Source: an uncultured Bacilli bacterium (GTDB taxonomy: Bacteria > Bacillota_I > Bacilli_A > RF39 > UBA660). Taken from it: 64,000 bases of DNA. The stretch spans positions 44,587 to 108,586 of the forward strand of contig CANQKX010000001.1 in assembly GCA_947624565.1 (NCBI GenBank), read 5' to 3'. The notes under the pieces were generated by a model. It saw nothing but the letters and a program-made list of their open reading frames with translations, made no database searches and was not told where the DNA came from. A program made the translations under genes and the position numbers. This document shows, piece after piece, positions 20,900 through 38,185 of the stretch (positions within the stretch are counted from its first letter, which is position 1; each line of letters starts with the position of its first letter).

Positions 20900-21604
20900 T
20901 TACAATGGATTTTTTTTAATTTTATCAAAATTACGAGGATACTTTTCTTTTGTTTTTCCTATTTTTTTAATTTTTATTAGATTTCTAATACTATTTTCTT
21001 TCGGTAAAGTAAATGATATAACTTCTTCTATATTATAATTTAGTTCTTGTATAGATTTTTTTGATAGATTTATTTCATCTTCTATATTTGCTTTCATAGG
21101 TATAAAGTAGCCATTTATTTTTACCATTGGAAGACATATTTCATTTAAAATATTTAGTTTAGCTACTGCTCGCGAAGTAACTATATCAAATTTTTCTCTA
21201 TTTTCTTTTGCAAAGTCTTCTGCTCTTTGATGAACTGCAACTATATTTTTTAAATTTAATTCTTTTATTACTTCGTTTAAAAATTTTACTCTTTTATTTA
21301 ATGCATCTACTAATGTTACGTTAAGATTTGGAAAGACAACTTTTAGAACTAATCCAGGAAATCCTGCACCTGTTCCTATATCACAAATAGATATATTTTT
21401 AGTTAAATCATATGACTTTATTAAAGTTAAACTATCATAAAAATGTTTTAAATAAACTTCTTCTTTTTGTGTAATAGATGTTAAATTTATTTTTTCATTC
21501 CAACTTATTAACATCTCATAATATTTATTTAATTTATTTATCATGTCATCAGTTATATTTATACCTAATTGTTTTATACTTTCTATAAATTCATTAATTT
21601 TCAT
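20900..21604 (-). CDS. rsmG: 16S rRNA (guanine527-N7)-methyltransferase RsmG (GidB)
   Basis: ICDIGTGAGFPGLVL SAM motif; follows mnmG. Confidence 0.9.
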   Translation of the reverse strand: MKINEFIESIKQLGINITDDMINKLNKYYEMLISWNEKINLTSITQKEEVYLKHFYDSLTLIKSYDLTKNISICDIGTGAGFPGLVLKVVFPNLNVTLVDALNKRVKFLNEVIKELNLKNIVAVHQRAEDFAKENREKFDIVTSRAVAKLNILNEICLPMVKINGYFIPMKANIEDEINLSKKSIQELNYNIEEVISFTLPKENSIRNLIKIKKIGKTKEKYPRNFDKIKKNPL

Positions 21605-23450
21605 TAAAATACCTCTTCATATAAATTGATAGTATTGATATGTCAGATGGATTAACTCCACTTATTCTAAGTGCTTGTCCAAAACTTTCTGGTCTTATTT
21701 CTTTTAATTTAATTCTTGCTTCTGATGCCAAATTAGGTATATTGTCATAATTAATGTCTTTGGGTATTTTTTTATTTTCTAGTTTTCTCATTTTTTCTGC
21801 TTCTTTTTTTGTTTTTCTTATATATCCTTCATATTTAACTATTATTTCTGCTTGTTCAAGTTCTACTTCATCAAATTTTTCACTTAATTTTTCTTTTATA
21901 TCACTAATAGATACTTCTGTTCTTTTTAAATAATCATATGCATTTATATTTTTTTCATCTTTTATTTTTATTTCTTTTAATTCTTGTAATATTTTTTCTA
22001 TATTTTTTTCTTTATTTAATAATTTATTATATTGTTTTTCATTTATTAAACCTACTTCATATCCATATTTTCTTAGTCTTAAATCTGCATTATCATGTCT
22101 TAGTAATAACCTATATTCTGCACGTGAAGTTAAAAGTCTATATGGATCTTTAACACCTTTAGTTACTAAGTCATCAATAAGTACACCAATATATGCTTCA
22201 TCTCTTTTAAGTATCAATGGATCTTTATTTTCTAATTTTAGCGATGCATTAATTCCAGCGATTAATCCTTGCCCTGCAGCCTCTTCATATCCACTAGTTC
22301 CATTTATCTGCCCTGCAGTAAATAAATTTTCTATTATTTTTGTTTCTAGTGATTGTTTTAAATCTCTTGAATCTATCGCATCATATTCAATCGCATACGC
22401 ATACCTAAGTATTTTTGCTTTTTCTAATCCTGGTAGACTATGAACCATTTCTTCTTGAACATCATATGGCATACTTGTTGAAAAACCTTGTAAATATATA
22501 TCATCATAATATAAACTTTCTGGTTCTAAAAATAATTGATGTCTTTCTTTATCTGCAAATCTAACTACTTTATCTTCTATTGAAGGACAATATCTAGGAC
22601 CAGTTCCTAAATTTTCATGAAAGCCTCCATACATACTTGATCTACTTAAATTATCTCTTATTATCTTATGTGTTTCTTTTGTTGTATAAGTTAAATAACA
22701 TGGTTCTTGACTTTCTATAGAATAATATGGTGCATCATCAAATGAAAATGTATAAAGTTTACTATCTCCATCTTCTCTTTTAGTTTTTGAAAAATCTATA
22801 GTACTTCTTTTAATTCTAGGAGGTGTTCCTGTCTTTAATCTTATAAGTTTAAATCCTAATTTTTCTAAGTTTTTACTTAAATATAATGAAGGTCTTGTGG
22901 CTTTTGTTTTAGATAAGTCTTTTTCTGTTGGATTAGATATTGGTCCACTAGATGTTCTTTTTTCTCCTACTAATATATCTGATCTCATATATGTTCCTGT
23001 AGTTAATATTACAGCATCACACATTATTTCTTTTCCTGTGGATAATTTAATACCTCTTATTTTATTGTTTTCTACTATTAAATCTTCTACAATTTCTTCT
23101 TGTATGTCTATATTTTTATTTTCTTCTATTATTCTTAGCATTTCTTTTGGATAAGTTATTTTATCTCCTTGTGCTCTAAGAGATCTTACTGCTGGGCCTT
23201 TACTTGAGTTAAGCATTTTCATTTGTATTAAAGTTTTATCTGCTACTTTTCCCATATATCCACCAAGTGCATCTATTTCTCTTACTACAATACCTTTTGC
23301 AGAACCACCAATTGATGGATTACATGGCATCATTGCTATTGTATCTTTACTACCTGTAACAAGTAAAGTTTTATGACCTTTGTTTGCGCAAGCAAGTACT
23401 GCTTCACATCCTGCATGTCCACCACCAACTACAATTACTTCATACTTCAT
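21594..23450 (-). CDS. mnmG: tRNA uridine 5-carboxymethylaminomethyl modification enzyme MnmG (GidA)
   Basis: FAD-binding N-terminus MKYEVIVVGGGHAGCEA; 618 aa. Confidence 0.9.
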   Translation of the reverse strand: MKYEVIVVGGGHAGCEAVLACANKGHKTLLVTGSKDTIAMMPCNPSIGGSAKGIVVREIDALGGYMGKVADKTLIQMKMLNSSKGPAVRSLRAQGDKITYPKEMLRIIEENKNIDIQEEIVEDLIVENNKIRGIKLSTGKEIMCDAVILTTGTYMRSDILVGEKRTSSGPISNPTEKDLSKTKATRPSLYLSKNLEKLGFKLIRLKTGTPPRIKRSTIDFSKTKREDGDSKLYTFSFDDAPYYSIESQEPCYLTYTTKETHKIIRDNLSRSSMYGGFHENLGTGPRYCPSIEDKVVRFADKERHQLFLEPESLYYDDIYLQGFSTSMPYDVQEEMVHSLPGLEKAKILRYAYAIEYDAIDSRDLKQSLETKIIENLFTAGQINGTSGYEEAAGQGLIAGINASLKLENKDPLILKRDEAYIGVLIDDLVTKGVKDPYRLLTSRAEYRLLLRHDNADLRLRKYGYEVGLINEKQYNKLLNKEKNIEKILQELKEIKIKDEKNINAYDYLKRTEVSISDIKEKLSEKFDEVELEQAEIIVKYEGYIRKTKKEAEKMRKLENKKIPKDINYDNIPNLASEARIKLKEIRPESFGQALRISGVNPSDISILSIYMKRYFNEN

Positions 23451-23505
23451 TTATTGCACCCTCTTTTTGCAAATGTATTATACTACAATATTTAATTTTA
23501 GACAA

Positions 23506-24111
23506 TTAACTATTATTTGATAATAAAGATATCAATGTTAAATTTGCAATATAAAAGGTCCATTCTATGCAATGACAAATAATTTTTAAATTTGTAGATA
23601 AATCAAATTTTCTTATAATTACAATATTTATATCACATACTAAAAGACATAATATAGCAACTAAAAATAATATTGATATTCTTTTTAATCTTATTTTTTT
23701 AATCGTTAAAAATATATTTATAATTACTATTAAACCATATAATATAGCCTCAACTATCAATATTTTTTTATCAAGTATTAAACATATAATAAAATTTATT
23801 ATTGATAGTAATAAGATTTTATTTGATTTATCTTTAATAAAAAAGAAATAAAATATCTGAACTATTATAAAAGAAGATATTCCTAATACTGATTTTTTTA
23901 TTAATATAAAAAAGATATCTGCTAAAAAAGAAAATATTAAAGATAAAGTTAAGTAAAAATTTACTTTATTTGATTTAATTCTGTTTATTAAAATATATAT
24001 AATACTTATCAATGTAGGAAAAATCTTAATAATATCAAAATTCGTACTATTTACAAAATTAATGATAATTATAATTAAGAAAATTATTTGAAAAAAAATA
24101 TATAAATACAT
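23506..24111 (-). CDS. hypothetical polytopic membrane protein
   Basis: ~6 predicted TM helices and no recognisable motif. First gene of the insertion between mnmG and mnmE. Confidence 0.35.
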   Translation of the reverse strand: MYLYIFFQIIFLIIIIINFVNSTNFDIIKIFPTLISIIYILINRIKSNKVNFYLTLSLIFSFLADIFFILIKKSVLGISSFIIVQIFYFFFIKDKSNKILLLSIINFIICLILDKKILIVEAILYGLIVIINIFLTIKKIRLKRISILFLVAILCLLVCDINIVIIRKFDLSTNLKIICHCIEWTFYIANLTLISLLSNNS

Positions 24112-24174
24112 TTTAACACCTTCATTACTTTAAATTATGATGTGTATTAATAATGTTTTTATACATTTTTATTG

Positions 24175-24672
24175 CTATTGTACAGCATATAAATATTCAA
24201 TACTTGTTATCTCATTATTGTTAATAATAAAATTTAATTGTGTTTTTTGTTTTGTATATGTATACATATTATCTATTTTCTCATAATCATCTCCATATGT
24301 TTTTTTCATTTTATCAAATGAATCAGTTATTTTTATTCCTTCTTTAGTTTTTACATTTTCATCTAAAAAATAAATTGAATATATTTTATCTTTGTCATTA
24401 TCAGAAAATGTTGTAACTTCATAACTTCCATAATTAAATGTTTTATCAAGTCCTTCAAATGCGCAAGACTCAACCTCTGTATAATCTTCAGGTTGTCCAT
24501 ATTTTTCTATTGAAAAAACTTCTCCTAATTTCATCGTTTTTCCATTATGTTCAAATTCATATAATTGAATTTCATCTTTTTGTTTTTGATTATAATTACA
24601 ACCAAATAATACTCCTATTAAAAATAATGTTATAAAAATTTGTTTTATTTTTTTCATAGAATCCTCCTTCAA
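24175..24672 (-). CDS. hypothetical lipoprotein (lipobox LFGC)
   Basis: Signal peptide ITLFLIGVLFG|C followed by a small globular domain. Its start overlaps the downstream end of the preceding gene by 4 nt. Confidence 0.45.
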   Translation of the reverse strand: MKEDSMKKIKQIFITLFLIGVLFGCNYNQKQKDEIQLYEFEHNGKTMKLGEVFSIEKYGQPEDYTEVESCAFEGLDKTFNYGSYEVTTFSDNDKDKIYSIYFLDENVKTKEGIKITDSFDKMKKTYGDDYEKIDNMYTYTKQKTQLNFIINNNEITSIEYLYAVQ

Positions 24673-25673
24673 TATCTTATATCATTGTAATACATATTTA
24701 TCTTTTTTTGATATATTTTATTAATTTTTTCATTTTTCCTATAATCTATCAAATCGTAGTTTTCTTTTAATATATTTGAAAAATATTTTGATAATTTTGT
24801 TGCACCTGATAAATTAAGATGTAAACCTCCATCATATGTATCTAAATTATAATTTATCCCTATTTCATTTGATATACTGGCAAAATTATAATATTGTAAA
24901 TTATTTTTCCTTGAATATTCTTGAATTTGTGTTTCATATTCTTCATACCAATATGGATATAAACTAGGTGCTTTTATAAGTATTAATTCTATATTATTTT
25001 TTTTACATAAAGAAACAATCTTGTCAAGGTATGAATAATCTATATCTGAAAAACTATAATTTGAAAGAATTTTTTTTGAAGGTAGTGAAGTATAAGGTTT
25101 TACATTAGTATTTATTAAAAAACCATTATGTGTATTTTTTTTTCTTTTAAATAAATATTCAAAATCTTCTTTTGTTAATTTGTCATATCTAGAATGATAC
25201 CTTATTATTGGAAATAAATAGGAGATAAAAGTTTCATCTTTTAACATTGAATTATTTATAATTTCTATTTTTTCTTTTGACCATTTCATTTTATCTATTG
25301 TTAACCTATTATAAGCTTCACTTACAGGCTTATTATATCTCATAGAATTAACATTAAATACCACTACTTTTGGCTTTTCATATTTTAAAGTTTCTTTTAA
25401 TATAGAATAAGATTGCCATATCAATTGTTGAGGTGTACCTCTTACATAAGAAGAAATTCCTTCTTCTTCATACATAACAATAGGAGAAAAATTTGCATAT
25501 ACTTCACAATCTCCTATAAAAATTACATCATGAGGAACTTCTTCATCGTAGTATTCTGATATCATTGATCCCTCTATTAGATTTGTTGCATATTTTGGAG
25601 AAAAAAGAATATTTAAAAATATAAATATAAGTGTAAAAGAAAATATTATAAGAAAAGTTTTTATATACTTCAT
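24669..25673 (-). CDS. SGNH/DltD-like (AlgX/PatB-like) putative O-acyltransferase partner protein, membrane-anchored
   Basis: N-terminal TM anchor then an extracytoplasmic domain, encoded immediately downstream of the MBOAT protein. This is the conserved MBOAT+SGNH pairing (DltB/DltD, PatA/PatB). Sequence-level family assignment is tentative. Confidence 0.4.
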   Translation of the reverse strand: MKYIKTFLIIFSFTLIFIFLNILFSPKYATNLIEGSMISEYYDEEVPHDVIFIGDCEVYANFSPIVMYEEEGISSYVRGTPQQLIWQSYSILKETLKYEKPKVVVFNVNSMRYNKPVSEAYNRLTIDKMKWSKEKIEIINNSMLKDETFISYLFPIIRYHSRYDKLTKEDFEYLFKRKKNTHNGFLINTNVKPYTSLPSKKILSNYSFSDIDYSYLDKIVSLCKKNNIELILIKAPSLYPYWYEEYETQIQEYSRKNNLQYYNFASISNEIGINYNLDTYDGGLHLNLSGATKLSKYFSNILKENYDLIDYRKNEKINKIYQKKINMYYNDIRY

Positions 25674-25685
25674 ATATACTACCTC

Positions 25686-26963
25686 CTAAAATTTACTATA
25701 AATAAACTCGTTAACATTAAATCCTATACCATATCTTCCAAAAGTAATAACTAATAGAAATAAAATTAAAATTATAATTATCTTTTTATTCGTTGTCATC
25801 TTCTTAATTTCTTCTTTTATTCTTAATTTTTTTATATCAAATATCATAATAATAACTATAGATATAATTAATATTAAATAATCTGATATTTCCAAACCAA
25901 AAATAAATAAATTTTTAAATAAACTTATATAATTAAATTCATAAAATATTGTTGACAATTTTGTAAGTGCTTCAATAGAATTTGGATAAATGAAAAATAT
26001 CCATAACAAAGAAACTATTATATAATTAAATATAATATTTAAAATTCTATTTTTACTTTTTTTATTGTTTTCTATAATTAATATAATACCATTTAATAAA
26101 CCCCACAAAATATAATTTATTCCATGCCATATTCCAGATACAAAGAAAGTTATTAAAATATTTATATTATTTCGTATTTTACTTACTCTATTTCCCCCTA
26201 ATGGAATGTATACATAATCTTTTAGAAAATTTGATAATGTAATATTCCATCTTTTCCAAAATTCTTTCAAATTTTCTGATAAATAAGGACTATCAAAATT
26301 TTCTACTAATTTTATATCAAATAAATTTGATACTCCTAATACTATATCAATTCCTCCACTAAAATCACAATATATAAGTATAGAATATAACAAACACGAT
26401 AATAATACATACGATCCCGTAAAATTATTTTCTACAATATAATTTATTATCACTATGATTCTTTGAGCAATTATAACTTTTTTAAATAATCCAAAAAGTA
26501 TTCGCATAAACCCATAAATGAAATTTTCTAATTTTATCTTCTTTTTCTTTTTTAATTGATTACCCAATTGAGAATATCTTGATATTGGGCCTATAAATAA
26601 ATATGGTAAATATAGTGCATATAATAAGAAATTAAATAAATTTGTTTCGGCATCTATTTTTTCGTTATATACATCAATTAAGTATGAAATTATTTGAAAA
26701 GTATAGTATGATATTCCAATAGGAACAATTATTGATGTTTTTTCAAAAATTCCAAAGAAATTGTTGTATATATATAGTTTGAAAAATAAAAGTAATAATA
26801 TATTTAATATAATTACAATCAATATTAATTTTTTTCTTTTTGATTTTTTCAATGTTTTCGCACTAAAAAAGGATATTAATGTACTTAATAATATATAAAT
26901 TAAATTATATATACCAAAACTGGCATAAATTAGTATACTAAATATTAATATAAAAATATTCAT
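25686..26963 (-). CDS. MBOAT-family membrane-bound O-acyltransferase (DltB/AlgI/PatA-like)
   Basis: Polytopic protein with the MBOAT catalytic His motif FFVSGIWHGINYILWG. The start at 26963 (MNIFILIF) has the RBS AGGAG 6 nt upstream, which removes the track's overlap with the upstream gene. Confidence 0.75.
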   Translation of the reverse strand: MNIFILIFSILIYASFGIYNLIYILLSTLISFFSAKTLKKSKRKKLILIVIILNILLLLFFKLYIYNNFFGIFEKTSIIVPIGISYYTFQIISYLIDVYNEKIDAETNLFNFLLYALYLPYLFIGPISRYSQLGNQLKKKKKIKLENFIYGFMRILFGLFKKVIIAQRIIVIINYIVENNFTGSYVLLSCLLYSILIYCDFSGGIDIVLGVSNLFDIKLVENFDSPYLSENLKEFWKRWNITLSNFLKDYVYIPLGGNRVSKIRNNINILITFFVSGIWHGINYILWGLLNGIILIIENNKKSKNRILNIIFNYIIVSLLWIFFIYPNSIEALTKLSTIFYEFNYISLFKNLFIFGLEISDYLILIISIVIIMIFDIKKLRIKEEIKKMTTNKKIIIILILFLLVITFGRYGIGFNVNEFIYSKF

Positions 26964-26971
26964 AAAATCTC

Positions 26972-28579
26972 CTATTCTGCAAGTGGAAATATGGATTGAT
27001 CCCACACTCTACCTTTCATACTTGCACTACTTAATTTTTCAATATCTGTTGCAGGACCCATTATATGATTTCCTGGTGTTGAATCAAAATGCCTATATAC
27101 TTCATTTATTTTAACTAAATTCCAATAATGAGTTTTATCTGTTGTATAAATCAAATAATTTGGAATTTCTTGTTTATCAAGAGCTTGTTTTACTAACAAT
27201 GCATGTACATAACAATTTCCCTTTTTTTCAGTTAAACCATACCAAATTGGATCCGAGCCTCCCCAATTTGAATTATACTTTATCATATTTCTTATTGTAC
27301 TAACTATTCCTGTTACATCTTTGCCAACTAAATAATTATTATAAAATTCATTAAATTTTTCTGATGTATCAAACTGGTCATGTTCAACATATATTTTTCT
27401 TTTTTTGTATGTTTTATTTCCACTTTTATCTTCGGAATAATAAGTTGCATAATAAGTACCAAAAACAGCCGTATTTACACTACTACTATCTACAGAAAAA
27501 CTAACATAGCCATCTTTTGCATCGTAAGCGCTTACTCCTGAATTATAGTCAATATTTGTATTTTTATTTATAGTTATTGTAGTTAATCCATTAATACTAG
27601 GACCAACTTCATCTTTTATTATATTTAAGGTACATTTTTGTTCTGTTTTGTTTCCACTTTTATCTATAGCTTCTATTATAATTTCTTGTTGACCTATATT
27701 GTTATTTATATCAGTTTTTAAATTTGTTTCAACTCCTTCTTGTTTATCATATACGTACTCAATAAAGGAATCTTTATTTATGTGTTGACCATAATATATA
27801 GTTACATTACGTAATTTTAATTCTGGAGGTGTTGTATCTTTTATTATTATTTTTACATTATAATTTTCATTATTATATTTTATTGGTATATTATATTCTC
27901 CAGGTGGAGAAGAATTTATTTTATCTAATATTTCTTGATTTATTAAATCTCCATTTTTATTAGAATTTAATAAAATTTCTTCTTTTGTTAGTAAATCACC
28001 TAACTCCTTTTCAATTTTTTCATTTAATAATTTTATTTTTAAGTTGCAGGTCTTTCTAGTACTATTCCCATATATATCTTTTACTTCTATAATTATTTTA
28101 TAATTTCCAAACTTGGTGATTTTTGGTTTATTTATGATATTTACAAGAATTTTTGAACTATCACTTTTACTAACAATAAAATCTTCCGCATTAATTTTAT
28201 AATCTATATCTTTTTCCAAATTTCTAAATTTTACTTTTGGAGGTGTTGTATCTTTAATATATAAATTTACATTTCTAGTAATGTTATTATATTTTATTTT
28301 TATATTATAGTTTGATACTTTTGAAGTGTCTATTTTTTTTACATTAGTTACAAAATAACTATCTTTTGGAGATTTTCCATCTTTGAAGAAACTTTGTATT
28401 TTTATTTCTTTTGTTCCTATTTCTAGTATTACCTCTTTTTTTACATTATTATAAATACATTTATATGAAATAAAAGAAACAAGGAAAAAAGCTAATAAAA
28501 TTATTAACTCTATAAATAATGAACGAAATAATACATATTTAAAGCTTTTTTTCTTTTCCTTCAAATTTTTTTTAAACAT
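26972..28579 (-). CDS. signal-anchored surface protein: two Ig-like (DUF5011-type) repeats plus a C-terminal transglutaminase-like (Cys-His-Asp) domain
   Basis: N-terminal TM. Two ~95-aa repeats share YIKDTTPPKVKFRNL / IIKDTTPPELKLRNV. C-terminal GNCYVHALL...THYWNLV...HFDSTPG resembles the papain-like transglutaminase core. Confidence 0.45.
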   Translation of the reverse strand: MFKKNLKEKKKSFKYVLFRSLFIELIILLAFFLVSFISYKCIYNNVKKEVILEIGTKEIKIQSFFKDGKSPKDSYFVTNVKKIDTSKVSNYNIKIKYNNITRNVNLYIKDTTPPKVKFRNLEKDIDYKINAEDFIVSKSDSSKILVNIINKPKITKFGNYKIIIEVKDIYGNSTRKTCNLKIKLLNEKIEKELGDLLTKEEILLNSNKNGDLINQEILDKINSSPPGEYNIPIKYNNENYNVKIIIKDTTPPELKLRNVTIYYGQHINKDSFIEYVYDKQEGVETNLKTDINNNIGQQEIIIEAIDKSGNKTEQKCTLNIIKDEVGPSINGLTTITINKNTNIDYNSGVSAYDAKDGYVSFSVDSSSVNTAVFGTYYATYYSEDKSGNKTYKKRKIYVEHDQFDTSEKFNEFYNNYLVGKDVTGIVSTIRNMIKYNSNWGGSDPIWYGLTEKKGNCYVHALLVKQALDKQEIPNYLIYTTDKTHYWNLVKINEVYRHFDSTPGNHIMGPATDIEKLSSASMKGRVWDQSIFPLAE

Positions 28580-28665
28580 TTTACACCTACTATATAGTAG
28601 TATACATTTTTTTAAATTTTAATGTCAATTTTTTGTTTTATAACAATGTAAAAAAATGTATATTT

Positions 28666-29622
28666 TTATACATTTTTAATATTATTTACAAACTCATTTA
28701 TATCAATATAATCGTTTAATAAATTATATAAATTTTTTATTAAATTTAAATCTAAATTATACTTAATCATCAAATTATATGATGAATCTATATTATCAAA
28801 ACCTTCTATAACCATACCTATTTCTTTGGTTATTTCATCTTTTTTCTTACCTTTAGATAGTAATATTCCTGCCCTTTTATTTCTACTATCATTTCCTATT
28901 GATGTTGTTAATAAATCTCCTAATCCTGACAAATTATAAAATGTGCTTTCTTTTGCACCTAGTTTTATTCCTATTTCTTTTATCTCATTTAATCCTTTAG
29001 TTATTATAAAAGATAATGTATTTGTATCATATCCTAATCCTTCAAATATTCCACTTGCGATTGACACAACATTTTTTAATGCTCCACCTATTTGTATTCC
29101 TATTATATCTTCATTATTTTCAAGTTTAAAATTGTCTGTTTCAAATAATTCCTTTATCTTCTTATTACCTGAATATTCAATAACTGTTATCATATCATTT
29201 ATAATTTGATTAGCATGTGATGGACCTGATATTACGGATATTTCACATTTTGGTAATTCTTCTTTTACTACATCTGATAATATCTTATTTGTTTTTTCTT
29301 CTAATCCCTTTGATGAGATTATTATCTGTTGATTTGTTACATATTTTTTTATATCTATGCAGGTTTGTCTTACAACTTTAGATGGTGTTGCAATAACTAT
29401 ATATTCACTATCAATTAAAGTTTCTTCATAATTTGTATAACATTTTATATTTTTATCTAAAAATAAATCTTTTAAATACATACTTTTATGTTCATTGTTT
29501 ATTAAATCACATTCTTCTTTTTTATATGACCATATTTTGATATTATTATCTTTCTTTTTGCTTAATACATACGCAAGTGCGCATCCAAAACTCCCACTAC
29601 CTATTATAGCTATATTTTTCAT
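28666..29622 (-). CDS. gpsA: NAD(P)H-dependent glycerol-3-phosphate dehydrogenase
   Basis: MKNIAIIGSGSFGCALA Rossmann N-terminus. The track's longer start (29643) would overlap the mnmE stop. Confidence 0.85.
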   Translation of the reverse strand: MKNIAIIGSGSFGCALAYVLSKKKDNNIKIWSYKKEECDLINNEHKSMYLKDLFLDKNIKCYTNYEETLIDSEYIVIATPSKVVRQTCIDIKKYVTNQQIIISSKGLEEKTNKILSDVVKEELPKCEISVISGPSHANQIINDMITVIEYSGNKKIKELFETDNFKLENNEDIIGIQIGGALKNVVSIASGIFEGLGYDTNTLSFIITKGLNEIKEIGIKLGAKESTFYNLSGLGDLLTTSIGNDSRNKRAGILLSKGKKKDEITKEIGMVIEGFDNIDSSYNLMIKYNLDLNLIKNLYNLLNDYIDINEFVNNIKNV

Positions 29623-29627
29623 ATTTC

Positions 29628-30974
29628 CTACTTTCCTAAACAAAAGTTACTAAATAATGTATCTATTAATTTTTCATCATAACTTTCACCTATTATTTCA
29701 TTTAATATTTCACAGATTTGTTTAATATCTATTTCAAGTATATCTATTGGAATATCTTCTTTTAAAGATTTTGATAAATTTTTTGCAATTTTGATTGCTT
29801 GTTTTACAAGCGATATCTGTCTTGAATTTGATAAATACGTAAAATCTTTATTATTTAATTCATCAAGTTTAAATATATCACTTATTTCTTCTTTTAATTC
29901 ATCAATTTCTTCTAAAGCTGATATTTTTATTATTTTTTCATCTTTAAAGATATTTAAATCTATTTTAGCATCTAAATCAATTTTATTTATTACTATTATT
30001 CTTTTTTTATCTTTTGTTATTTCTAATAAATTTAAATCCTCTTTTGTAATTTCTTCATTATTATTTAAAACTAATATTATTAAGTCTGCATTTTCTATTA
30101 AATTAATACTTTTTTCTACACCTATTTTTTCAACGATATCATCTGTTTTTCTAATTCCCGCCGTATCTATTATATTTAATAATACTCCATTTATTCTAAT
30201 TTGTCCCTCAACAATATCTCTCGTTGTTCCTGCTACATTTGTTACTATTGCTTTTTCTTCATTTAATAGTTTATTAAGTATTGAACTTTTACCTACATTT
30301 GGTCTTCCTAAAATTAGAGTATTTATTCCTTCTTTTATTATTTTTCCATTTTCTGATTCATTAAGTAATTTAGATAATTCTTCATTTATATATTTTGAAA
30401 TATCTTCTATTTCTTTTTTTGTAACTATCTCTATATCTTCATATTCTGGATAATCTATATTAACTTCTATATTAGCATTAAGGTTAATTAATTTATTTAC
30501 TATATCTTTAATTAATTTTGATATTTTTCCATCTATACCATTAATTGCAAGTTTTCTAGCATTTTCTGTCTTAGAATTTATCATATCCATTACTGATTCG
30601 GCTTCAATTAAGTCAATTCTTCCATTTAAAAATGCTCTTTTTGTAAATTCACCAGGTTCAGATAGTCTTGCTCCTTTACTCAACAAAATTTCAAGTATCT
30701 TATTTGTTGTTGAAATAGATCCATGACAATTTATTTCAACCATATCTTCTCTTGTAAATGTTTTAGGTGATTTCATAATTGTTACCATTACTTCATCTAT
30801 TATTTCATTATTTTCTATTATATGTCCATAAGTTATAGTATGAGAATCTTTTTTATTTAAATCTTTATCAAAAATACTATTTACTATATTTATTGATTCT
30901 TCACCACTTACTCTTATAATAGAAATTGCACCTATACCAACAGCCGTTGATATAGCACATATCGTATCATTCAT
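29628..30974 (-). CDS. mnmE: tRNA modification GTPase MnmE (TrmE/ThdF)
   Basis: G-domain GRPNVGKSS, DTAGIR and C-terminal CLGK. The start at 30974 (MNDTICAIST) is the typical MnmE N-terminus; the track's extension overlaps jag. Confidence 0.9.
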   Translation of the reverse strand: MNDTICAISTAVGIGAISIIRVSGEESINIVNSIFDKDLNKKDSHTITYGHIIENNEIIDEVMVTIMKSPKTFTREDMVEINCHGSISTTNKILEILLSKGARLSEPGEFTKRAFLNGRIDLIEAESVMDMINSKTENARKLAINGIDGKISKLIKDIVNKLINLNANIEVNIDYPEYEDIEIVTKKEIEDISKYINEELSKLLNESENGKIIKEGINTLILGRPNVGKSSILNKLLNEEKAIVTNVAGTTRDIVEGQIRINGVLLNIIDTAGIRKTDDIVEKIGVEKSINLIENADLIILVLNNNEEITKEDLNLLEITKDKKRIIVINKIDLDAKIDLNIFKDEKIIKISALEEIDELKEEISDIFKLDELNNKDFTYLSNSRQISLVKQAIKIAKNLSKSLKEDIPIDILEIDIKQICEILNEIIGESYDEKLIDTLFSNFCLGK

Positions 30975-31010
30975 AATATCATCTCTTTCTTTATTTATAA
31001 AAAGAACCAT

Positions 31011-33138: not shown

Positions 33139-33666
33139 TTAATTTTGTGATAACTTTTTTTCTTTATTTTTTCTTTCTGAAATTATTTCTTCTAATACTT
33201 CATCACATATTCCTTCAATTTTTTTGATTGATTCTTTATTTCTTTGGGTGTGACATAAATCAACAAAATAATTATATGATTCTTCGTCTGCTTCTTTATA
33301 TTGGCTTATATCCACATAAGATCTTACATATCCCTTTCTATTATAAGTTGAGGCTATATTTCCTTGAACATCATAAAATGAATAACCAATTTTAACTACA
33401 GAATGAAAATCATTTGAAGCTGATGTATAAATTTTTGAATCATTTTCAAAAATCTTATTCAACATATGTGAAAAATAGTAACAACTTCCTTCCATAAATA
33501 TTGACATTGTAAGTTGATATTTTGTATCTTCGTCTAATTTTTGAAAATCAGAATCAGAATCAAGATATTTTTGAGAAAATTTACTTATAATTGAATCAAT
33601 TACATCTAAAATAGGTTCACTTTGCTTATTTATTAACTCTGATACTTTTTTAAAATAATCTTCCAT
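33139..33666 (-). CDS. hypothetical cytoplasmic protein (no recognisable family) heading the rpmH-rnpA transcription unit
   Basis: 175 aa, acidic/aromatic-rich, no TM. Occupies the position where rpmH normally faces dnaA. Confidence 0.4.
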   Translation of the reverse strand: MEDYFKKVSELINKQSEPILDVIDSIISKFSQKYLDSDSDFQKLDEDTKYQLTMSIFMEGSCYYFSHMLNKIFENDSKIYTSASNDFHSVVKIGYSFYDVQGNIASTYNRKGYVRSYVDISQYKEADEESYNYFVDLCHTQRNKESIKKIEGICDEVLEEIISERKNKEKKLSQN

Positions 33667-36540: not shown

Positions 36541-36740
36541 TTTTTGTGGAAAAAATATGACTTTTTTATTATAATATAAGGAAAAATTTAATTATAAACA
36601 TTATCAACATATTTGTGGATAAATATAAAATATTTATAAACATGTTGTTTATATAAAATTTGTGGAAATTGTGGAAAACTATAGAATTTTATTATTTTAT
36701 AACAATTTTTATAAACTTTTATTGTTGATAATTTTTTAAC
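36541..36740. promoter_or_regulatory. oriC-associated DnaA-box cluster and dnaA promoter region
   Basis: DnaA-box 9-mers: TGTGGATAA perfect at 36614-36622; one-mismatch boxes TTATCAACA (36601), TGTGGAAAA (36545, 36670), TGTGGAAAT (36661) and TGTTGATAA (36723). Confidence 0.65.
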
Positions 36741-36814: not shown

Positions 36815-38185
36815 ATGAACATTGATAATATTTGGAATCAATTTTTAAATATAATAAAAACAAGATTATCTTCTCTTTCATATAATACTTGGTTTAGCTC
36901 GTCTAAACTTGTTGAATTAAATGAAGAACATGCTGTTATAATTGTTCCAACGATTGCTCATAAAAAACATTTATCTGAATCATATATAGATATTATAAAT
37001 GAAATATTTAATGATATAACAGGAACTAATTTTAATATTGAATTTGTATTAGAAAATGAATATGAAAAAAATAAAAATCAAACTAGTAAAAATATTGAAA
37101 ATGATATAGAAGAATATGGTGTTCCTTATAATAGTAGTGAGAAAGCTAATTTAAATCCAGATTATACTTTTGAAAATTTTATAGTAGGTGAAAGTAATAG
37201 ATTTGCACAAGCGACTGCTCTTGCTGTTGCTGAAAATCCTGGAAAAATGTATAATCCTTTATTTATATATGGAAATAGCGGATTAGGTAAAACCCATTTA
37301 ATGCAAGCAATTGGAAATTATATAATAAAAAATAGTAATAAAAGAGTATTATATGTTACTAGTGATCAATTCATCAATGATTTTCTTGGTTTAAATAAAA
37401 AAGATAAAGATGGAACTAATTTTGATTATGTTGAAATATTTAAAGATAAATATAGAAATATAGATGTATTAATTATTGATGATATTCAATTTTTAGGGAA
37501 TGCTCCAAAAACACAAAATGAATTTTTTCACACATTTAATACATTATATGATGATAAAAAACAAATAATTATTTCTTCTGATTCTTCTCCTGATGATTTA
37601 AAACATTTAGAGGATAGGTTAAGAACAAGATTTAATTGGGGATTAAAAGTAAATATTTTTCCACCTGATAATAATCTTAGAAAAGAAATATTAAGAAAAA
37701 AAATGGCAAATATGGATTTTTCTAGACATATTACTGAGGATGCGATTGATTATATTGCTAACATGTGTGCTTCTGATGTAAGAAGTTTAGAAGGTGCTTT
37801 AACAAGAGTTTGTGCTTATTCAACTATCTTTTTTGAAGAAGAAATTACACTTGATCTTGCTGTTGAAGCTTTAAAAGGAACAATTTCTCAAACTTCTAAC
37901 TTTAAAAACGATATTCAAAAGATACAAAGAATTGTTGCTGAATATTATAATGTATCTGTTGAAGATTTAAAATCAAAAAAAAGAGTAGCAAGTATTGCTT
38001 TTCCTAGACAAATTGCTATTTACTTATCAAGATTATTAACTGATGAATCATTTCCAAGAATTGGTATGGAATTTGGAGGAAGAGATCATTCAACTGTAAT
38101 TCATTCATGTGATAAAATTGAAAAAGAAATTAAAAATAATAAGCAATTAGAAAAAATAATAGAAGAAATTAAATTAAAATTATAA
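36815..38185 (+). CDS. dnaA: chromosomal replication initiator protein DnaA
   Basis: AAA+ Walker A GNSGLGKTHL, DnaA signature and a C-terminal DNA-binding domain. Confidence 0.95.
   Translation: MNIDNIWNQFLNIIKTRLSSLSYNTWFSSSKLVELNEEHAVIIVPTIAHKKHLSESYIDIINEIFNDITGTNFNIEFVLENEYEKNKNQTSKNIENDIEEYGVPYNSSEKANLNPDYTFENFIVGESNRFAQATALAVAENPGKMYNPLFIYGNSGLGKTHLMQAIGNYIIKNSNKRVLYVTSDQFINDFLGLNKKDKDGTNFDYVEIFKDKYRNIDVLIIDDIQFLGNAPKTQNEFFHTFNTLYDDKKQIIISSDSSPDDLKHLEDRLRTRFNWGLKVNIFPPDNNLRKEILRKKMANMDFSRHITEDAIDYIANMCASDVRSLEGALTRVCAYSTIFFEEEITLDLAVEALKGTISQTSNFKNDIQKIQRIVAEYYNVSVEDLKSKKRVASIAFPRQIAIYLSRLLTDESFPRIGMEFGGRDHSTVIHSCDKIEKEIKNNKQLEKIIEEIKLKL

Follow-up and report, generated by a model that had tools for sequence, protein, structure and literature searches.

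Pairs of a membrane-bound O-acyltransferase (MBOAT) with an SGNH-fold protein are a general bacterial route by which acyl groups reach wall polymers, with consequences for immune recognition and for how well cells resist lysozyme and cationic peptides. Few such systems have been characterized: Dlt, PatAB, AlgIJFX, WssFGHI and PatA1/B1. In PatA, the tyrosine of a C-terminal FxYxxF hexapeptide, which in PatA/AlgI-type MBOATs follows extra transmembrane (TM) helices, is auto-acetylated and then donates to PatB, and in the Dlt system the equivalent motif is found on the microprotein DltX (Anderson et al. 2025, PMC12148441). Here we describe a four-gene cassette from an uncultured Bacilli bacterium, located on the minus strand of a 64,000-nt stretch of contig CANQKX010000001.1 (hereafter the window, meaning the whole stretch that was analysed). 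The cassette lies within the interval between mnmE and mnmG and encodes an MBOAT, a membrane-anchored partner with a predicted SGNH fold, a surface protein with Ig-like repeats and a transglutaminase-like domain, and a small Cys protein. The first-pass annotation had read the contents of this interval as a module for the O-acylation of a cell-envelope polymer; an envelope acylation module, whose product may or may not be an O-ester, remains the best reading.

In its layout the cassette resembles PatA/PatB (Neisseria, Campylobacter), AlgI/AlgJ and WssH/WssI, in which the gene for an MBOAT with a conserved His is followed by that for a single-pass SGNH-fold protein. It further shares with the PatA/PatB type an FxYxxF motif fused to the MBOAT and an operon without an adenylase, a carrier or a DltX microprotein. 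Unlike in those systems, the partner falls outside the PatB (DUF459), AlgX/AlgJ and DHHW families and has Cys instead of Ser at the predicted nucleophile position, the MBOAT is nearest DltB by sequence, and two extra conserved extracellular proteins, one BLIP-like and one Ig-like/transglutaminase-like, belong to the set. Membership of AlgI/AlgJ or WssH/WssI was rejected, as there was no profile match and no polysaccharide synthase gene nearby. The likeness to DltABCD(X) lies in the DltB-like MBOAT, in DltD being among the best structural matches of the partner, and in long-form relatives, whose MBOAT gene is directly preceded by DltA-like and DltC-like genes. The differences are that the shuttle motif is fused to the cassette MBOAT, that the partner fails the DltD model PF04914, and that the Asp-type racemase of the long relatives implies an amino acid other than D-Ala; a canonical Dlt system was rejected because dltA, dltC and dltX are missing from the cassette and the DltB score lies below the cut-off. 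Bacillus lipoprotein N-acetylation (LhaT, PMC12345273), which relies on a different membrane protein and donor, is unrelated. Judged by sequence, the cassette would work like a PatA/PatB-type pair, has its ancestry nearest Dlt and is a member of neither. We found no description in the open-access literature of coupling between an MBOAT and a transglutaminase-like protein, of a Firmicutes MBOAT–SGNH system like this cassette, of a system combining DltA, aspartate racemase and an MBOAT, or of an SGNH protein with a Cys nucleophile.

The MBOAT and its predicted SGNH-fold partner

The second cassette gene (25686–26963, minus strand, counted from the ATG; the open reading frame (ORF) reaches back to a GTG at 27005) encodes a 425-aa MBOAT, which scores 97.7 bits with PF03062 (cut-off 27; E = 1.1e-27). 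The WHG His motif that the first-pass annotation had reported is present within SGIWHGINY, and this catalytic His (residue 294 of the 439-aa ORF, 280 from the ATG) is invariant in alignment A5. At its extreme C-terminal end the protein reads NEFIYSKF, corresponding to the FxYxxF acyl-shuttle motif. The motif is kept in all five compared cassettes and, across 80 metagenomic loci, in every partner-adjacent MBOAT whose C terminus was recovered. The closest solved structure is DltB (PDB 6BUG/8JEM, E = 3e-23), and the only NCBIfam match is to the DltB model TIGR04091, with 152.4 bits falling short of the cut-off of 375.

The third gene (24669–25673, minus strand) encodes a 334-aa protein with one predicted N-terminal TM helix. 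An AlphaFold2 (AF2) model of this partner, built from 72 diverse homologues, reached a pLDDT of 95.8, and Foldseek matched it to Bacteroides GDSL acylhydrolases, DltD (6pfx, 6o93, 3bma), TesA and PatB (7tjb, 8tlb) with a probability of 1.0 (E 1e-5 to 1e-2, identity 10–15%, target TM-score 0.5–0.72). In the model, the partner adopts the three-layer α/β/α SGNH fold (clan CL0264). Its predicted block I is G54-D-C56, with Cys replacing the Ser nucleophile, and block V is D281-x3-H285-x-N287, a D-x3-H spacing as against the Asp-x-x-His of SGNH proteins. The family profile aligns the G-x-S/C of the partner with the block I Ser of GDSL enzymes and D…H-x-N with the block V Asp and His. Conservation is complete at G54, G184, P236, N287 and G290 and reaches at least 90% at D281 and H285. 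Cys occupies the nucleophile position in the window protein and in all 120 close homologues; across 73 aligned sequences (the window and 72 family representatives), the residue is Ser in 57 and Cys in 15.

The partner family is large, with 6,676 cluster representatives found at a limit of E = 1e-3, and by profile it is effectively unclassified. The window protein had no Pfam or NCBIfam hit above threshold, with matches up to E = 10 considered. The window protein gave no match to the DltD model PF04914 even at E up to 10, with a single hit among the 72 family members at 1e-3, and none to PatB/DUF459, AlgX/AlgJ (PF16822) or DHHW; family-wide, ALGX was matched weakly by 2 of the 72 members, and DUF459 and DHHW by none. 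A minority of the family showed faint or occasional matches to DUF1574 (PF07611) or LB_356 (PF27429), SGNH-clan families without a known activity (PMC9487903), the window protein itself being below threshold. One homologue is named 'SGNH/GDSL hydrolase family protein' in its source. A single-sequence search of PDB sequences returned nothing useful for either this partner or the 535-aa surface protein. The arrangement proposed in the first pass, an MBOAT followed by a membrane-anchored extracytoplasmic partner of the DltD, PatB or AlgJ kind, is thus borne out for gene order and for the SGNH fold by the AF2 model, Foldseek and the family-profile alignment; assignment to the DltD, PatB, AlgJ or DHHW profiles did not stand, and the nucleophile position holds Cys.

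Two further extracellular proteins and the long form

The first cassette gene (26972–28579, minus strand) encodes a 535-aa surface protein with a type II membrane anchor, consisting of one predicted TM segment at the N terminus, Ig-like repeats (PF16403, E = 2e-7) and a C-terminal transglutaminase-like domain. In this domain Cys456, His484 and Asp499 are invariant and form a G-x-C…H-x-W…D core. PF01841 matched all eight homologous domains, the best at 5.3e-11; the window's own domain scored 17.6 bits against a cut-off of 23 (E = 0.005) and is 63–70% identical to passing members. A profile search also found PDB 9crn, a transglutaminase-like protein. On these comparisons the C-terminal domain is assigned to the transglutaminase-like superfamily PF01841, from which it differs in being joined to Ig-like repeats and an anchor and in being coupled, sometimes by fusion, to an MBOAT–SGNH pair. 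Weak matches of the domain to YunG and Phage_YunG-like models were seen as well. In three independent assemblies with the rest of the cassette intact, the gene is broken up, giving ORFs of 132, 216 and 230 aa in L083 (6433–8168), three ORFs likewise in L085 and four in L084, which suggests a pseudogene or programmed frameshifts.

The fourth gene (24175–24672, minus strand) encodes a small anchored protein of 165 aa (range 160–165 aa) with a BLIP-like/DUF4309-like/YfeY-like domain. It had no Pfam or NCBIfam match above threshold, nor any at E up to 10. Its N terminus carries LFGC, which is lipobox-like with an atypical Phe at −2; many homologues are without this Cys and look signal-anchored. 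Residues C70 (in the motif SCAFEG), G74, G112 and Y160 are invariant in alignment A2. The AF2 model (pLDDT 88.7) predicts a two-repeat domain of helix and β-sheet, with Cys70 in an inter-strand loop, and its weak fold matches (4ygt, 4ifa, 2qzb, 3d4e) are DUF4309 YjgB, the N-domains of SCP proteins, YfeY and BLIP-like proteins.

The four genes were found as a set in five chromosomal contexts. Besides the window, the cassette stands beside a Vut_1 gene in L083, in the order gpsA–TIM–Metallophos–cassette–mnmG in L086, before obg together with a second Ig-like/transglutaminase-like paralogue in L087, and before secE–nusG, downstream of integrase and resolvase genes, in L089. In two of the contexts Peptidase_M15 genes are located near the cassette. 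A metagenome scan gave at least 579 confirmed stretches; the locus scan used the narrower alignment A4, the 72-sequence alignment A1 being too diverse, and its patterns are biased to the Cys subfamily. Among the 45 metagenomic loci with enough flank, the MBOAT was present in all, the small protein in 44 and the transglutaminase-like protein in 42. Gene fusions link the same components: the small-protein domain is fused to the C terminus of the partner in P0123, P0125, P0126, P0129 and P0135, with an MBOAT ending in FIYTQF directly upstream of one such fusion (L091), and in P0182 and P0127 the partner is joined to Ig-like and transglutaminase-like domains, the gene for P0182 being followed by one for a small-protein homologue. 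Because of this co-occurrence, the fusions and the five contexts, the four genes are taken to form one system. The surface protein and the small protein (the lipoprotein of the first-pass annotation), which had been listed as accessory, do lie in the block; with their presence in 42–44 of the 45 loci and their fusions to the partner, they are integral to it and not bystanders.

Many of the related loci contain a longer version of the cassette, in the order Ig-like/transglutaminase-like protein, Asp-type racemase, DltA-like adenylase, DltC-like carrier, MBOAT, Cys-SGNH partner and small Cys protein (for example, L139:29–7671 and L164:77–7658, among loci L101–L175). The adenylase was detected in 32 of the 45 loci (TIGR01733 AA-adenyl-dom, 309–334 bits), the 75-aa carrier with an LDSFD serine motif in 34, and the racemase in 27 (TIGR00035, 207–215 bits; it is also above the CuyB cysteate-racemase cut-off). 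The long-form MBOAT has 530 aa and ends in FIYNQF in most long loci, as against FIYS(K/R)F in most short ones. The window and 10 of the 45 loci have the short, carrier-less form. With the long-type adenylase, carrier and racemase as tblastn queries (canonical Dlt sequences were not among them), the 64-kb window gave no match, nor did the 6–10 kb on each side of any short-type locus. Between the two forms, the MBOATs are 31–37% identical and the partners 49–59%; relative to the long version, the short MBOAT has several indels or missing loops and one fewer N-terminal helix. The far greater divergence of the MBOAT than of the partner would point to a change on the donor side with retention of the extracellular chemistry. 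The whole family is predicted to be a Dlt-like aminoacyl-transfer system with extra extracellular parts, and its long form looks like an uncharacterized Dlt-like D-aminoacylation system.

Proposed function of the cassette

From the sequence comparisons and structural models, we consider it likely that the four-gene cassette carries out acyl transfer of the general MBOAT–SGNH class to an acceptor in the cell envelope. The acyl group would come to the MBOAT from a donor in the cytoplasm. This donor is probably an acyl-CoA, for instance acetyl-CoA; we lean towards it because the short form contains neither adenylase nor carrier. By means of the WHG His, the MBOAT would then charge the Tyr of its C-terminal FIYSKF motif at the outer face of the membrane, and this shuttle would pass it to Cys56 of the partner, giving a thioester instead of the usual seryl ester. 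The partner would then deliver the acyl group to an envelope acceptor, either peptidoglycan or a secondary/teichoic-type polymer, and no single acceptor is better than a tentative choice. The BLIP-like protein, with its Cys70, and the Ig-like/transglutaminase-like protein would be obligate accessories that may position or process the acceptor or perform further transfer steps. The proposed steps follow PatA/PatB and Dlt by analogy (PMC12148441): the domain identities, motifs, fold, co-occurrence, fusions and synteny are shown, and donor, acceptor, transfer order and what these two proteins do are inferred. The window encodes murE, murF and a class A penicillin-binding protein, so the organism makes peptidoglycan.

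Several observations weigh against this proposal. The window MBOAT has RWN (residue 254 of the 439-aa ORF; 26244–26246) where five homologues have RWH, and DltB also has RWH at this second conserved position; Asn is the usual residue at the RW(H/N) position in eukaryotic MBOATs. The block III Asn of SGNH proteins is not obviously conserved in the partner family, and the partner scores below the Pfam and NCBIfam thresholds of every characterized transferase family. The window covers 64 kb of the genome, and an adenylase and carrier, or canonical dltA and dltC, may be encoded elsewhere. A possible reading of the high identity between short-form and long-form partners is that both systems transfer one and the same aminoacyl group. 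Moreover, no polysaccharide or teichoic-acid synthesis genes that would point to an acceptor adjoin the cassette in any of its contexts.

A first alternative concerns the two accessory proteins. The transglutaminase-like protein may act hydrolytically, taking off or remodelling the modification or trimming the acceptor, in the manner of Ape1 on O-acetyl-peptidoglycan and DltE on D-Ala-lipoteichoic acid, with the small protein serving as a scaffold or an inhibitor-like regulator. Known systems do pair transferases with esterases (PMC9487903, PMC13653941). The invariant Cys-His-Asp triad fits this role, as does the BLIP-like fold, which is typical of protein-binding modules. However, the single conserved Cys of the small protein is hard to explain in a pure scaffold, and the fusion of the transglutaminase-like domain to the transferase in P0182 and P0127 suggests that both act in the same direction. 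We regard a hydrolytic role as possible and do not favour it.

A second alternative narrows the acceptor, so that the cassette would be a peptidoglycan O-acetyltransferase, an analogue of PatA/PatB or OatA that protects the wall from lysozyme and controls autolysins. The PatA/PatB architecture, including the fused FxYxxF, agrees with this, and so do the capacity of the organism to make peptidoglycan and the Peptidase_M15 genes near the cassette in two contexts; transglutaminase-like proteins, too, are often wall-active. Yet the partner has no PatB-family match and is equally far from DltD and from generic GDSL esterases, PatA/PatB need neither a BLIP-like nor a transglutaminase-like protein, and the long relatives activate an amino acid and not acetate. 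On balance this assignment seems doubtful.

It is also unlikely, in our view, that the cassette is the membrane and extracellular half of a Dlt-like aminoacylation system whose adenylase and carrier are encoded elsewhere in the genome. Adenylase, carrier and racemase genes do stand immediately upstream of the MBOAT in the majority of the related loci (32, 34 and 27 of 45, respectively), the partners of the two forms are highly identical (49–59%), and among curated and solved proteins DltB comes nearest to the MBOAT. But the three long-form genes were not found in the 64-kb window or within 6–10 kb on each side of the short loci, the short MBOAT is without an N-terminal helix and several loops and only 31–37% identical to the long one, and the C-terminal motif differs consistently between the forms (FIYS(K/R)F versus FIYNQF).

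A more elaborate reading of the cassette family, in place of a simple O-acyltransferase, is a cysteine acyl relay, which we think quite improbable. Here, an ester on the MBOAT Tyr would give a thioester on the SGNH Cys, which would be handed, possibly via the Cys of the BLIP-like protein, to the Cys-His-Asp triad of the transglutaminase-like protein and from there to an amine, yielding an amide product. The long form would carry a racemase-made D-amino acid, and the window would represent a donor-switched, acyl-CoA version. If such a relay operated, the acceptor amine could be, for example, a lysine of a peptidoglycan stem peptide or of a surface protein, and the long form would perform an extracytoplasmic wall decoration by a D-amino acid other than D-Ala.

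The cassette within the mnmE–mnmG interval

The order of genes on the minus strand of the window is rnpA, yidC, jag, mnmE, gpsA, the 535-aa protein, the MBOAT, the 334-aa partner, the 165-aa protein, a 201-aa protein, mnmG, rsmG and parB. The upstream flank is mnmE (29628–31010, minus strand; Pfam TrmE_N, MnmE_helical and MMR_HSR1) and the downstream flank mnmG (21594–23450, minus strand; Pfam GIDA, E = 8.6e-158). The window has a G+C content of ~22%. An identical locus was recovered from independent ENA, Logan and NCBI assemblies, which excludes an assembly artefact. The best matches of mnmE come from metagenome-assembled genomes that bear the labels uncultured Bacilli, Erysipelotrichaceae, Tenericutes, Clostridium sp. 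CAG:1193 and Candidatus Fimihabitans, names which suggest an RF39-like member of the gut lineages related to Bacilli and Mollicutes.

That mnmE and mnmG are normally adjacent and are here split by gpsA and five further ORFs, as first described, was confirmed by the gene order and by 80 related species loci. At these loci mnmG lay no more than 150 bp from mnmE in 44 and at a gap of 150–1300 bp in 15; gpsA alone intervened in four, larger inserts in four, and mnmG was elsewhere or inverted in four and not found in the available flank in nine. None of the five accessory genes was located near mnmE in any of the 80. The interval, 23506–29622, runs exactly from the start of gpsA to the stop of the 201-aa membrane-protein gene. 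The idea of a single insertion of about 6 kb did not hold, as the interval is a composite of three things of different origin: gpsA, a yhhN-like gene and the four-gene operon.

The first of these, gpsA (28666–29622, minus strand, from the ATG), encodes an NAD(P)H-dependent glycerol-3-phosphate dehydrogenase (Pfam NAD_Gly3P_dh_N and _C, E ~1e-40; NCBIfam NF000942, 280 bits against a cut-off of 257). Among species whose flanks could be used, the four closest (L003, L004, L006 and L007; mnmE 63–82% identical) all have the order mnmE–gpsA–mnmG, and gpsA adjoins mnmE also in a fifth, truncated relative locus. Being at this locus in the closest relatives, gpsA is resident and outside the cassette.

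The 201-aa protein (23506–24111, minus strand) is a polytopic membrane protein and, judged by its homologues, a probable divergent member of the YhhN (lysoplasmalogenase-like) family. The protein itself had no Pfam or NCBIfam match above threshold, nor any at E up to 10; PF07947 (YhhN) was matched by 8 of 10 homologues (50–58% identity), these matches being marked weak where shown. Homologues of yhhN lie between gpsA and mnmG with different neighbours and without MBOAT genes in L093 (GCA_017938725.1; mnmE 83% and mnmG 87% identical to the window) and L095, and one is likewise present in this interval without MBOAT genes in L094; yhhN is absent beside the cassette in L086, L087 and L089. Comparison of L093 and L095 with the cassette contexts thus ruled out the 201-aa protein as a cassette member. 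Downstream, a promoter-like site of mnmG (TTGTCT-17 nt-TATAAT; 23477–23505, minus strand) has a sequence that L003 and L086 share and delimits the conserved flank; conservation with these two relatives upstream of mnmG extends to the yhhN stop codon.

The accessory unit itself is a 4.45-kb four-gene operon at about 24175–28628, with intergenic gaps of 8–12 nt. A promoter-like site, TTGACA-18 nt-TATACT (28599–28628, minus strand), lies 20 nt upstream of its first gene; with 11 of 12 consensus matches it is the top-ranked site of the region, and it is to be read as a consensus match only, as this AT-rich region gave 82 such sites against 70.5 in shuffled sequence. Overlapping the gpsA stop codon is an AT-rich hairpin, TGTATAAAAATATACA, with a run of seven T (28650–28672, minus strand), read from the sequence and likely to be the gpsA terminator; a GC-biased terminator scan did not flag it.

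The content of the gpsA–mnmG slot differs between relatives. It is empty in L003; in L093 (7550–9491) it holds a 131-aa ORF, yhhN and a 245-aa lipoprotein-like ORF; in L095 (4936–9158), an S6PP/APH fusion gene, a MurD-like ligase, yhhN and a 157-aa ORF; in L086, TIM, Metallophos and the cassette; and in the window, the cassette and yhhN. The slot therefore appears to be a small variable region near the origin in this clade. A 27-nt direct repeat, of which 16 nt (TTTTTATACATTTTTA) are exact, flanks the cassette, with copy 1 at its distal boundary (24153–24179) and copy 2 at its proximal boundary (28660–28686), where it overlaps the gpsA stop and terminator. The copies are spaced 4507 nt apart, and a chance match at both boundaries has a roughly estimated probability of ~1e-3 for what is low-complexity sequence. 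The repeat may be a recombination or insertion footprint, or it may be two similar AT-rich terminators.

In L089 (1718–3245), genes for a resolvase and a phage integrase, along with one for a Zn-dependent phospholipase C, are found ~4 kb upstream of the cassette, and this neighbourhood is the sole hint of mobile-element surroundings. Carriage on plasmids or phages was rejected, the matches amounting to one weak plasmid match and eight short, unannotated 'Bacteriophage sp.' contigs from faeces. Two entries of that name from human faeces, MT837917.1 and MT839289.1, encode partner homologues of 49–52% identity and are probably bacterial fragments filed as phage.

The view that the block is ancestral here in a subclade and was lost elsewhere, and so neither acquired nor relocating, is improbable. 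In its favour, the divergent L086 (gpsA 51% identical) has the cassette in the gpsA–mnmG interval, directly upstream of the conserved mnmG promoter, and the cassette proteins have diverged (49–77%) to a degree comparable with gpsA. Against it, the cassette is absent from the interval in all 80 species loci, L093 and L095, including the closest (mnmE 82–83% identical); equally similar cassettes occur at four unrelated loci, namely before obg, before secE–nusG by an integrase and resolvase, by Vut_1 and in the window; the cassette lies between the two copies of a direct repeat; and L093 and L095 have different cargo in the interval. The suggestion of a lineage-specific block stands in that the block is absent at this position in 80 relatives; with L086 sharing the slot, strictly lineage-specific acquisition is not proven.

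The window also covers the replication-origin region. Six DnaA-box-like sites occur within 190 bp (36545–36731) just upstream of dnaA (36815–38185), which is followed by dnaN, and the cumulative GC skew reaches its minimum at ~33–34 kb of the window. The cassette is therefore likely to lie ~8–13 kb from the origin and dnaA. Between rpmH and dnaA, murE and murF are inserted, and a 175-aa ORF between rpmH and murE (33139–33666, minus strand) matches PF24591 (Phage_YunG-like) and has the same place in L093.

The cassette family is abundant in gut, rumen and bioreactor metagenomes. It combines features not described for known MBOAT–SGNH systems: an SGNH fold whose predicted nucleophile is Cys, two additional conserved extracellular proteins that both possess a conserved Cys, and, in most members, a dedicated racemase, adenylase and carrier. 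For the window the finding is narrower, namely an accessory operon, predicted to modify the cell surface, in a variable slot near dnaA. The short and long forms would provide a natural donor-switch pair for studying how MBOATs choose their donors, and the family as a whole points to an uncharacterized envelope modification in uncultured low-GC gut bacteria and Clostridia-like organisms.

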